From the NCBI GenBank assembly GCA_944387435.1, contig CALXEW010000002.1:78951-142950 (forward strand): DNA of 64,000 nucleotides, read 5' to 3'. The position numbers and the translations under genes were made by a program. The stretch is from an uncultured Clostridia bacterium (GTDB lineage: Bacteria > Bacillota > Clostridia > TANB77 > CAG-508). Each line of letters begins with the position of its first letter. The stretch's first letter is position 1. A model generated the notes under the pieces. The model was not told the DNA's origin. It did not search any database and saw nothing but the letters and a program-made list of their open reading frames with translations. Shown piece after piece: positions 34,628 to 36,503 of this stretch.

Positions 34628-35359
34628 TCAATCCTTTGCTAGTGTTAATACACCTATTACTTTTGGTTTTGAATTTTTTAATACTTTAGCACATTCATTT
34701 ACTGTACTTCCTGTTGTATATATATCATCCACTAGTAAGATTCTCTTTTTATATAACTTTTCTTTATTAAATAATTCATATACTCCTTGTACATTTTTTA
34801 ATCTCTCTTCTTTATTTAATTTACTTTGCTCTATAATATTTTTAACTTTAAAAATACATTCTGTTTCTATTCTCAAATTAGAATTACAGGCTATTTCTTT
34901 TGCGATTAGTTCACTTTGGTTGTATCCTCTTATCTTTAGCCTTTCTCTACTAATCGGAACTGGCACTATTGTATCATATTTTTTTATATTTTCAAAGAAG
35001 TTTTCATTTTTTAACAAAAAATTCACAAATGTTTTATCTAAATATGACTGCTCTTGAAATTTGTATTTTAAAATTATTCTTCTTATTATTCCCTGATAAA
35101 AAAAAATATATAAATGCTCATTAAAATATTTTTTATCATTAAAATTATTTTTTATATTTTCTTTCCTTTCTTTTTTTCTTTTGATATTCTTATACTTATC
35201 AAGACCGAAAACCGCTTCACTCTCTAAGATTTTCTCACACCTTTTACATAAAAAATCTTCATTTAGTTTTCCACAAATACCGCACGTTGGTGGATAAATA
35301 AGATTGAGAATTTTGGGGACGGGGAATTTTTGTCTCACCTTATTAAATTTTTCTATCAT
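34628..35359 (-). CDS. comFC: ComF-family phosphoribosyltransferase-domain protein
   Basis: N-terminal CGICG...CKRC zinc finger and C-terminal PRTase motif ILLVDDIYTTGST. The 5' end overlaps the repeat at 35306-35336, so the true start is uncertain. Confidence 0.7.
   Translation of the reverse strand: MIEKFNKVRQKFPVPKILNLIYPPTCGICGKLNEDFLCKRCEKILESEAVFGLDKYKNIKRKKERKENIKNNFNDKKYFNEHLYIFFYQGIIRRIILKYKFQEQSYLDKTFVNFLLKNENFFENIKKYDTIVPVPISRERLKIRGYNQSELIAKEIACNSNLRIETECIFKVKNIIEQSKLNKEERLKNVQGVYELFNKEKLYKKRILLVDDIYTTGSTVNECAKVLKNSKPKVIGVLTLAKD
35306..35336 (+). repeat. GGGGACGGGG element, left flank of the RAYT-like gene
   Basis: GAGAATTTTGGGGACGGGGAATTTTTGTCTC. 20 of 23 positions are identical to the reverse complement of the element at 36469-36503. 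Confidence 0.6.
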
Positions 35360-36110
35360 TAACTCTCACCTTCTTTATTTTTCTATATAATGTTGCTCTG
35401 CTAATTCCAAATATATCTGCTAGTTCTTGTTTAGAATATTTATAGTTTTTGTAATCTAAATAAGATATAAACTCGTCCAATATTTTTCCTTCTATTCTCT
35501 TTTGATTCAAACTAATATTTTCATGATTTAGAAATTTTTGTAACATATTTTCTAAATTCACTTTATTATCATAAATATTTTTATACGGTATTGATTTAAA
35601 TTTTTCGATATAATTTTGTGATTTTAAAAATAAGAAATCTAAAATTCTTTGATTTAAAAAACCTGATTTATTTAAATAATCATTATAAGATGAATATTTG
35701 TATTCGCTTTCATTCTCTACAATTTTTGCTTTAACTGGGTTCATATGAATATATTTTATACAAAAATATAGCTGTTCCCTTGTTAAGATTAAAATAGATT
35801 TAAATCTATCTCTAAAAACATATCCTACTCTATTATACTTTTTATTGTAATACCTTGCATATATTGAATTCACCATTCTCATAAATGCACTTATATTATT
35901 TATATTGTCTGAATAAGAGATTAAATGTGTATGATTATCCATAATACAATAACTTATAATATCTATTTTGTAATCTCTATAGTACTTTCTTAATAAACTT
36001 AAATATTTTTCCTTATCATCATCTTCTTTAAATATATATTCTTTATTTATTCCTTGAACAATATTATGACATATTTTATCATTTAATAGTTTTCTACTTT
36101 TTCTTGGCAA
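35343..36110 (-). CDS. RAYT-like / IS200-IS605 TnpA-like HUH Y1 transposase domain protein with C-terminal HTH
   Basis: HUH motif MDNHTHLI, Tyr motif KYIHMNPVKA, C-terminal ELADIFGISRATLYRKIKK helix-turn-helix. Confidence 0.7.
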   Translation of the reverse strand: MPRKSRKLLNDKICHNIVQGINKEYIFKEDDDKEKYLSLLRKYYRDYKIDIISYCIMDNHTHLISYSDNINNISAFMRMVNSIYARYYNKKYNRVGYVFRDRFKSILILTREQLYFCIKYIHMNPVKAKIVENESEYKYSSYNDYLNKSGFLNQRILDFLFLKSQNYIEKFKSIPYKNIYDNKVNLENMLQKFLNHENISLNQKRIEGKILDEFISYLDYKNYKYSKQELADIFGISRATLYRKIKKVRVNDRKI

Positions 36111-36468
36111 TTACATTCCTCCTTCTTCTATTTATACATACTTATGATTTTCCTTGAAATAATAAAAATAATCTTAACAATTTATAAATACTAAGATATA
36201 AATTTTTAGATTCTAATATTAAAAAATAAATAAAATTTTATATTCCAAATCTTGCCTTATAAAAAACATCCATTTCTTCTTGTGTATTTCGATATCATCT
36301 TCTACTCTTCTTATAGCTTTCCAAAATTTTTCTATTTGCTCTTCTGTTTTTAACATTTCATAAATTTATTTATATCCATGCTTTCTTCACCTCATTTGCA
36401 TTTGATATTATAATTTATTTTTATTTTTAAGTCAAATTAAATTTGGAATATTTTATAAAATTTTAAAA

Positions 36469-36503
36469 ATGAGACAAAAAAGGCCCGTCCCCTTATTGTC
36501 TCA
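36469..36503 (-). repeat. GGGGACGGGCC hairpin, right flank of the RAYT-like gene and terminator-like structure after the recD2 stop
   Basis: Minus strand: ATGAGACAATAAGGGGACGGGCCTTTTTTGTCTCAT followed by TTTTT. Confidence 0.6.

Follow-up and report, generated by a model that had tools for sequence, protein, structure and literature searches.

A class 2 Y1 endonuclease gene between inverted copies of a dispersed repeat at the recD2–comFC junction of uncultured gut Clostridia, a probable TIRtron-type system

A gene for a transposase-like protein that lies between two inverted copies of one short element raises the question of whether it is a mobile insertion, a domesticated host gene, or an enzyme with a dispersed family of repeats as its partner. 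Such a gene is found in a stretch of 64,000 nucleotides from an uncultured Clostridia bacterium (contig CALXEW010000002.1, positions 78,951 to 142,950), which was analyzed as a whole and is called the window below; all positions without further label refer to it. The gene occupies positions 35343..36110 of the minus strand, encodes a protein of 255 amino acids and is located between recD2 and comFC. A preliminary description of the locus, made from the sequence alone, had interpreted it as an inserted cassette resembling repetitive extragenic palindromic (REP) elements and their REP-associated tyrosine transposases (RAYTs). Published TIRtrons are RAYT-like genes between long inverted repeats (Di Nocera, De Gregorio & Rocco 2013, PMC3733652). 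Based on the evidence presented here, we consider it probable that the locus is a TIRtron (or REPtron), that is, a single-copy, vertically inherited gene for a class 2 Y1 HUH endonuclease with inverted copies of a cognate element of about 33 nt on either side.

The 255-aa product contains the motifs DNHTHL and YIHMNP. It matches the Pfam family Y1_Tnp (PF01797) with 41.5 bits against a cut-off of 23. The best NCBIfam family is REP_Tyr_transpos (NF047646, E = 1.3e-16), well ahead of the IS200 model NF033573, which reaches 20 bits against a cut-off of 55 (E = 6e-4). Amino acids 220–249 are recognized as a helix-turn-helix (HTH) by HTH_7 (25.9 bits) and HTH_8 (22.5 bits), both above their Pfam cut-offs, and by weaker families on the same residues, including HTH_23 (E = 0.033) and HTH_28 (E = 0.053). 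These results confirm the HUH and tyrosine motifs and the C-terminal HTH of the preliminary description, for which profile matches had been set as a test in advance. A homology search returned about 1,400 proteins, nearly all from gut metagenomes and almost all 247–259 aa long; a second, alignment-based search recovered only the same close relatives, more distant members being beyond its reach. The source annotation of the homologues is uninformative, with the term “putative transposase” appearing once.

In an alignment of 27 homologues with 50–93% identity, residues H60, H62, Y120, N124, P125, S140 and S141 are invariant. The codons of the HUH motif (H60-T61-H62) are located at 35925..35933, those of the catalytic tyrosine motif (Y120-I-H-M-N-P) at 35736..35753, those of the conserved serine pair S140-S141 following it at 35688–35693, and the region encoding the HTH (..SKQELADIFGISRATLYRKIKK..) at 35364..35453, all on the minus strand. 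The signature Y---NP defines class 2, the TnpA_REP-like enzymes, as opposed to Y----Q in class 1 (Quentin et al. 2018, PMC6006769). With N124 and P125 invariant, the protein is, as judged by its sequence, a Y1 HUH endonuclease of class 2.

A phmmer search of the Protein Data Bank with the single sequence gave no match at E up to 1. With a profile of the 27 sequences, the best match was E. coli TnpA_REP (4ER8, E = 0.001), followed by ISDra2 (E = 0.1). The alignment with 4ER8 extends from the HUH motif, where H60 and H62 align to the HMH of that protein, through YI..NPVK....V......Y.(F/Y)S(T/S). An AlphaFold (AF2) model with a mean predicted local distance difference test score (pLDDT) of 81 and a predicted template modeling score (pTM) of 0.67 shows a beta-alpha-beta-beta-alpha-beta-alpha core and a helical C-terminal half, with helices at residues 208–220, 227–234 and 238–254 near the HTH. 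Foldseek placed 4er8_A first for this model (E = 1.2e-5, TM score 0.69 on the target), ahead of IS608, ISDra2, IS200 and a Sulfolobus transposase, and the top 30 matches were all Y1 transposases. Compared directly, the protein scores 81–100 bits against seven TIRYTs (Di Nocera 2013, Additional file 5; 28–32% identity over residues 1–145/179) and 29–37 bits against three classical RAYTs. Membership in the RAYT superfamily, as proposed in the preliminary description, is therefore upheld, with the TIRYTs nearer than the classical RAYTs. This comparison supports the assignment to the long, HTH-bearing TIRYT or TnpA_REP subclass 2.1-like enzymes rather than to the classical RAYTs associated with GTAG-tagged REPs.

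The gene is flanked by two copies of one repeat. The upstream copy ATGAGACAATAAGGGGACGGGCCTTTTTTGTCTCAT, on the 5′ side of the gene, is located at 36469..36504 on the minus strand and is of a self-complementary type. The downstream copy TTGAGAATTTTGGGGACGGGGAATTTTTGTCTCA, at 35302..35337 on the plus strand, is inverted relative to it, starts 6 nt and ends 41 nt past the stop codon of the endonuclease gene, and has a T-rich 5′ arm. The left copy was first quoted as GAGAATTTTGGGGACGGGGAATTTTTGTCTC (35306–35336, plus strand) and the right one as ending at 36503; both are present in inverted orientation, the right one ending at 36504. On opposite strands the two flanks agree at 20 of 23 positions over GGGGACGGGNNNTTTTTGTCTCA, as had been reported, and they are the only matches to GGGGACGGGNNNTTTTTGTCTCA in the 64 kb at up to three mismatches, with none in 100 dinucleotide-preserving shuffles. 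The general form of the element is TGAGA(C/A)-N4-5-GGGGAC(G/A)G-N3-4-T5-6-GTCTCA, about 33 nt in length, and its core in the window is GGGGACGG. Scanning the window with a position weight matrix gave scores of 48.5 for the upstream and 52.7 for the downstream copy, compared to a maximum of 10.5 in the shuffles; the next best site was the same hairpin read on the opposite strand. The heptamer GGGACGG occurs four times in the window (0.25 expected).

Next, we asked if the gene, its position and its flanks are kept in relatives. We compared contigs from five lineages, carrying the proteins P0001, P0014, P0044, P0085 and P0104; the proteins used to fetch them are 93, 79, 65, 57 and 54% identical to that of the window. 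In all five, the endonuclease gene directly follows recD2; where the contigs extend far enough, it overlaps comFC, which is followed by a KAP-NTPase-like gene and by spoVT. For protein P0044, 24 contigs all show one identical location. A tblastn search of the repeat-bearing chunks fetched, about 0.85 Mb in total and derived from about 25 metagenome-assembled genomes (MAGs), revealed one copy per MAG, at this locus only. No relative with an empty recD2–comFC junction was found among the loci examined, and no tnpB is present at the locus. The gene thus behaves like a vertically inherited housekeeping gene, because it occupies the same place between recD2 and comFC in all lineages examined and is present in a single copy per MAG in the sampled DNA. 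The position given in the preliminary description is correct; the gene order supports an old, vertically inherited resident of this interval and not the fresh insertion implied there. The window itself is about 90% identical at the DNA level to MAG BRZ_HK__bin22, and its organism is present in chicken-gut metagenomes.

The flanks had been expected to accompany the gene elsewhere, and they do so in every orthologous locus fetched, down to about 53% protein identity. In each of the eight relatives' loci L001–L008, GGGACGG occurs exactly twice and inverted, upstream in the sense and downstream in the antisense orientation at a fixed +20 from the stop codon. The full element is recognizable on both sides in L001, L004, L008 and L013, the core of the last being GGGACAGG. 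In L009, the most degenerate locus, the arms are lost, and what remains is GGGGACAC on the upstream side, within a small hairpin that follows recD2, and GGGGACAG on the downstream side, within comFC.

The element is not confined to this locus. We scanned 185,579 species-representative genomes for the exact 18-base pattern GGGACRGNNNNTTTTTGTCTCA, which yields counts that are lower bounds, and obtained at least 140 exact matches in at least 118 chunks. From base composition, about 2.5e-5 exact matches are expected by chance per 2-Mb genome. Of the matches listed, about 125 are located in about 25 MAGs labeled uncultured Clostridia or Clostridium, including Clostridium sp. CAG:343. The 5′ arm TGAGA(C/A), which was outside the search pattern, precedes 116 of the matches listed, and about a dozen single matches among them, in unrelated phyla and without this arm, represent chance background. 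The motif is therefore massively over-represented in related genomes, as the preliminary description would require. The richest MAGs are CALXZC with at least 14 exact matches (at least 19 with the weight matrix), CALXFJ with at least 13 (at least 16), CALXFB with at least 10 (at least 13), CAKNKX with at least 9 (at least 15) and CASUIT with at least 9 (at least 10).

Within a genome, the dispersed copies resemble each other. The six bases following GGGAC are genome-specific: among the copies listed, GGGCAA is found in 12 of 14 in CALXZC, GGAGCT in 11 of 13 in CALXFJ and AGGTCT in all nine in CASUIT. The copies flanking the endonuclease gene carry the variant of their own genome, for example GGAGCT on both flanks in CALXFJ. 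Most copies are extragenic, since 71% of the 154 matrix hits are located outside open reading frames (ORFs) of at least 100 aa, compared to 17% of random positions. About half of the dispersed copies have an A-rich 5′ arm and form hairpins (median –11.2 kcal/mol); in the remaining copies, the 5′ arm is T-rich and the fold is weak (–7.5 kcal/mol).

The arrangement of the dispersed copies mirrors that around the gene. Of 37 adjacent pairs, 33 are convergent (“+-”), which is the arrangement of the two flanks, and 19 of these 33 have a spacer of 19–22 nt (modal length about 21 nt), giving a unit of about 90–103 nt. MAG CALXZC additionally contains three units of about 290 nt that resemble miniature inverted-repeat transposable elements, in which two convergent repeats enclose the same 221-nt insert (L029 1220–1512, L060 2772–3064 and L085 2297–2589); the insert is flipped in L085. 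Within the 221-nt segment there is a long inverted repeat, and the segment may code for a small structured RNA. No extra copies of the endonuclease gene were detected alongside the dispersed elements by tblastn in the sampled DNA.

Gain and loss of the element can be followed between close relatives. Downstream of the gene ending at 28678, the window has a plain terminator and no element (28680–28720); at the equivalent site, L041 shows a terminator plus one element and L090 a doublet. Likewise, L062 carries a doublet between the KAP-like gene and comFC that is missing from the window. The clearest case is a 103-nt doublet in L089 (3814–3916), consisting of a hairpin-type copy, a spacer of about 19 nt and a copy with a T-rich arm, between a stop codon and the ribosome-binding site of the next gene. 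It is cleanly missing from a contig of metagenome run X1, with 0 letters in common across the joint, and its absence would extend the upstream ORF by a few codons. This comparison between run X1 and L089 involves several related species in mixture and provides one informative joint. Y1-type transposition, as in IS200/IS605, causes no target duplication, and the clean joint matches this behavior.

Both flanks of the gene are also part of host sequences. On the minus strand, the upstream copy folds with –20.3 kcal/mol (z = –6.7) as RNA and is followed by the U-run UUUUUAAAAUUUU; it is the sole terminator-like site within 34400–36800. The final three codons of recD2 and its stop (..M R Q *, the latter at 36493–36495) are contained in the 5′ arm of this copy, ATGAGACAATAA. 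From these features, the upstream copy looks like it doubles as the intrinsic terminator of recD2. By itself, the downstream copy makes a poor hairpin (–7.2 kcal/mol, z = –2.3 or 0.1). Its opposite strand forms codons 8–18 of comFC (VRQKFPVPKIL), including CCC GTC CCC, which are very unusual codons for a genome of about 25% GC. The preliminary description had placed this copy at the first codons of comFC; its location inside comFC holds, the exact place being codons 8–18. We also considered a constraint on the P-V-P sequence of ComFC as the cause of CCC-GTC-CCC, which we judged insufficient: the codons are strongly disfavored at 25% GC yet retained, and identical DNA is found again on the upstream side of the gene and in non-coding places across genomes. 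The host thus appears to reuse both flanks, one as the recD2 terminator and the other as coding sequence for the N-terminus of ComFC, and the repeats account for the odd N-terminus of ComFC and the odd C-terminus of RecD2 in the annotation.

Among known systems, the TIRtrons and their TIRYT enzymes come closest. In both cases, a long Y1 enzyme starts with MPR.. and shows the blocks ..C(L/I)M.NH.HL.., G..W/F..RF.S and Y(I)..NPV.A..V....Y.(W/Y)SS, followed by a C-terminal extension with an HTH, and its gene is placed between terminal inverted repeats. The proteins of subclass 2.1 exceed the others in length, carry a serine motif that follows the tyrosine and have an HTH (Bac_DnaA_C, HTH_23 or HTH_28) in their C-terminal part; the subclass includes 20 of the 26 TIRYTs of Di Nocera 2013, whose repeats have GGGG[AT][CG]A[CG] in common (PMC6006769). 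The core GGGGAC(A/G)(G/C) found here equals or nearly equals this consensus (GGGGWSAS), which is fitted by GGGGACAG (L013, L062 and downstream in L009) and GGGGACAC (upstream in L009). Some TIRtron repeats are partly or wholly self-complementary, and for some, families of moderate abundance with singles, dimers and clusters have been described (PMC3733652); the repeats of this clade are likewise moderately abundant and occur in these three forms.

The differences concern host, HTH, repeats and context. The host is a low-GC gut Clostridium, whereas the published hosts are Proteobacteria, Acidobacteria, Planctomycetes and similar; the texts on the TIRYT and subclass 2.1 classes contain no Firmicutes cases (PMC3733652, PMC6006769), and Firmicutes are mentioned neither in Di Nocera 2013 (PMC3733652) nor in Nunvar 2010. 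The HTH is of the resolvase/Fis type (HTH_7/HTH_8) and not Bac_DnaA_C-like. Real hairpins with a U-run, as in terminators, make up half of the repeats, whereas no REP-like structures were found beside subclass 2.1 genes (PMC6006769). Unlike the TIRYT genes, the gene is locked in an operon-like recD2–gene–comFC context.

With the classical REP/RAYT and REPIN–RAYT systems (E. coli TnpA_REP/YafM, 4ER8; Pseudomonas Groups 2 and 3), the locus shares a single-copy, vertically inherited Y1 enzyme, inverted flanking repeats, extragenic repeats in a genome-specific variant, 4ER8 as the best structural match and, with REPINs, inverted doublets with a short spacer. REPINs are defined as pairs of inverted REPs of about 100 bp that replicate as a population linked to one RAYT. 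However, the protein is about 90 aa longer than classical RAYTs, bears an HTH and scores only 29–37 bits against them, the repeat consensus lacks the GTAG (GT[AG]G) tag of classical REPs, and the repeats number in the dozens (as lower bounds) and not in the hundreds. The IS200/IS605 TnpA proteins (IS608, ISDra2) have the HUH/Y1 fold and the catalytic residues in common with the enzyme of the locus, and they recognize structured DNA at element ends. They differ as class 1 enzymes with Y----Q that are multi-copy and mobile as a unit with ends on one strand; the gene studied here has been immobile over evolutionary time, and its product is far under the cut-off of the IS200 model.

E. coli TnpA_REP cleaves and rejoins single-stranded REPs (Quentin 2018, PMC6006769; Corneloup et al. 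2021). By analogy, we propose that the enzyme of the TIRtron acts in trans on the dispersed elements as single-stranded DNA, which it would cleave and rejoin via Y120 with a metal held by H60 and H62. Such activity would spread and homogenize the repeat population, and the convergent doublets and the 290-nt unit could then be regarded as gene-less versions of the TIRtron. It is more speculative that the C-terminal HTH helps to recognize the GGGGAC(G/A)G core and that the recD2/comFC context reflects a coupling to single-strand DNA metabolism.

Several observations weigh against this proposal. Binding, cleavage and mobilization are all attributed to the protein by analogy, and its score of 60.8 bits for NF047646 is below the curated cut-off of 80 for this model, which was built on classical short RAYTs. 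The window contains only the two flanking copies in 64 kb, and a metagenome that includes its organism (at about 13x) yielded one further contig, at 13.5x, with a copy showing 3 mismatches in 34 positions; the element family in the window's own genome may thus be small or decaying. The copy numbers per genome are lower bounds from the exact 18-base pattern. The core GGGGACGG of the window and its close relatives is one mismatch from GGGGWSAS. As for the structure of the element, the T-rich-armed copies, about half of the total, are poor hairpins, and covariation provides almost no support for a required structure, because the outer five stem pairs never vary and the sixth (C-G in 53 copies, A.G in 43) shows a compensatory change in only 5. 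Finally, the terminator-like features could mean that part of the conservation of the element is due to use by the host and not to recognition by a transposase.

The most serious alternative, which we regard as unlikely, is a domesticated DNA-binding regulator. According to this view, no DNA is moved; the HTH, and perhaps the Y1 domain, binds the GGGGAC(G/A)G elements at gene ends and controls transcription, termination or topology, including that of its own gene and comFC, and the repeats constitute a regulon that was spread long ago. The single copy, the strict synteny, the operon-like overlap with comFC, the HTH domain and the terminator-like elements at gene ends all agree with such a role, as does the published view of RAYTs, which are vertically inherited and housekeeping-like, as co-opted host genes (Bertels et al. 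2017). However, the two histidines of the HUH motif and the catalytic tyrosine never change over 50–93% identity, which argues for retained catalysis, and the homogeneous genome-specific variants, the gain and loss between close relatives and the multi-copy 290-nt unit point to recent movement or copying rather than to a static regulon.

Far less probable is an autonomous insertion sequence of the IS200/IS605 type that recently inserted between recD2 and comFC. It would explain the Y1_Tnp domain, the structured repeats at the ends and the earlier impression of an “insert”. Yet the gene has the same position in every lineage to about 53% identity, without a second copy in the sampled DNA or any relative found with an empty junction. 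Moreover, the enzyme shows Y---NP of class 2 in place of class 1 Y----Q and only 20 bits against the cut-off of 55 of the IS200 model, and the ends are inverted and not on one strand, with no tnpB. A mere coincidence of ordinary terminators or structured gene ends that are alike by chance or constraint is just as improbable and effectively refuted: the good terminator-like hairpin with U-run of the upstream copy, the G+C-rich stems expected in the terminators of a 27% GC genome and the presence of GGGACGGGC in a different hairpin (21420–21450) speak for it, but it fails to explain the 20/23 identity of the flanks without any such pair in shuffles, an antisense downstream copy inside a coding region with CCC GTC CCC codons, the retention of both copies beside the gene in all relatives, more than 100 further copies with 33 nt in common including the unsearched 5′ arm, and the fixed orientation and spacer of the doublets.

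With the TIRtron as the preferred reading, the locus extends TIRYT/TIRtron-type systems to low-GC Gram-positive bacteria, here an uncultured chicken-gut Clostridium lineage. REP/RAYT biology is known almost entirely from Proteobacteria, and work on the HTH-bearing TIRYT branch is limited to cataloguing; the literature searched revealed no biochemical report on it. Group 1 RAYTs do occur in Clostridia, with modestly abundant flanking 16-mers (Bertels et al. 2017), and REPINs have been associated with Groups 2 and 3 only (Bertels and Rainey). Here, REPIN-like doublets accompany an enzyme of the HTH-bearing class that is said to lack them. Tentatively, and with more doubt than confidence, the repeats may form a REPIN-like population that is the first clear case linked to an HTH-bearing RAYT outside Groups 2 and 3 (a TIRYT). 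It would also be the first in Gram-positive Clostridia, kept in an operon-like recD2–gene–comFC unit throughout the history of a gut clade. If true, this would contradict the statements that REPINs occur only with Group 2 and 3 RAYTs and that subclass 2.1 is without REP-like partners. It would also suggest that repeat processing is coupled to single-strand DNA metabolism, via the RecD2 helicase and the ComFC protein of DNA uptake, and that the host uses the repeats as portable terminators.

The clade offers a compact natural test set, with one conserved gene, an element in hairpin and non-hairpin forms, doublets, a cargo derivative and sister genomes that carry their own variants. It could reveal whether TIRYTs mobilize inverted repeats, what the HTH targets and how the host reuses the repeats as terminators or coding sequence. 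For annotation, the locus is a warning not to take the label “transposase” as a sign of a mobile insertion here.

The remaining features of the locus concern expression and gene context. The endonuclease gene has a TTG start and overlaps comFC by 17 nt. The ATG of comFC (35359) is located inside the end of the endonuclease gene together with a ribosome-binding site GAAGGTGAG, which gives the pair an operon-like appearance, and the overlap is present in the gene calls of all relatives. Directly 3′ of the upstream repeat and about 300 nt before the start codon, we identified a promoter-like site, TTGACT-17-TATAAT (36407..36435, minus strand), which matches 11 of 12 consensus positions and is the best in the region; its hexamers are kept in L001 and nearly so in L004. 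By its match to the consensus, this site is a putative promoter of the endonuclease gene. The 5′ leader between this site and the gene contains a decayed small ORF (36238..36379, minus strand), identified by alignment with L001–L003, where the gene calls show it intact at 51 aa (MEINRLHEIFKTEEQIEEFWKAIRRAEDDIENGRVYTQEEMDVFYKERFGI). In the window copy, the reading frame is disrupted by an early stop and by deletions of 1 nt and 13 nt, and the ORF is missing from more distant lineages with shorter spacers. The 51-aa product has no Pfam match, and the ORF is probably a passenger outside the system. A search of 34000–37500 against Rfam at E up to 1 revealed no known RNA family.

The upstream neighbor in all lineages examined is recD2 (36493..38730, minus strand; TIGR01448, 811.8 bits; synteny). 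Downstream, comFC (34628..35359, minus strand) matches TIGR00201 ComF (E = 2.5e-29) and encodes a protein with a phosphoribosyltransferase domain and a double zinc ribbon. Directly 3′ of comFC, a gene for a 641-aa protein (32587–34512, minus strand) is kept in all relatives; their copies have a precomputed KAP_NTPase Pfam match, and the window protein has no Pfam match at E up to 0.01.

Two further sites of the window contain GGGACGG, at 21438 and 45461. The preliminary description had listed related GGGACGG hairpins elsewhere in the window; as members of the repeat family these two sites are rejected, each scoring below 12 on the weight matrix. The first is part of a strong hairpin, GCTGTTTTTTGGGACGGGCTCAAAAAACAGC, at 21420–21450 (–18 kcal/mol) between convergent genes, which has the 9-mer GGGACGGGC in common with the flanking element but not its arms. 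Possible explanations for it are a decayed copy and a normal bidirectional terminator. The second, the fourth GGGACGG of the window, is located in an inverted repeat, TGGGACG..(18 nt)..CGTCCCA, at 45438–45470, upstream of an ORF ending at 45475; this repeat does not fit the element.

Some relatives show additional arrays and gene structures. In L027 (3492–3593 and 4039–4109, equivalent to L013 about 750–820 and 1270–1370), tandem arrays of a 34-nt unit GGGACTTTTTGGGACAGGCACTAAGTGACCATTT, with 3 and 2.1 copies, are inverted on either side of a gene for a small GT2-like membrane protein upstream of recD2. They contain the GGGACAGG core of the repeat of that genome and may represent a second repeat type with the same core. 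Another array, at L027 1044–1154 (L013 about 3690–3800), consists of 2.8 copies with a 40-nt period made up of degenerate repeat units (..CCTCAGGACGGTTTTTTCACTTGTCTCATTTGTT..); it is located between the upstream inverted repeat and the endonuclease gene and resembles a bacterial interspersed mosaic element (BIME)-like cluster on one flank. Lastly, recD2 is called as separate ORFs in L009–L012 (1581–3612; 218 + 415 aa) and in L014 (585–2684; 386 + 226 + 61 aa). The split is identical in four independent assemblies of one lineage, which may point to a real frameshift or a pseudogene and not to an error of assembly.

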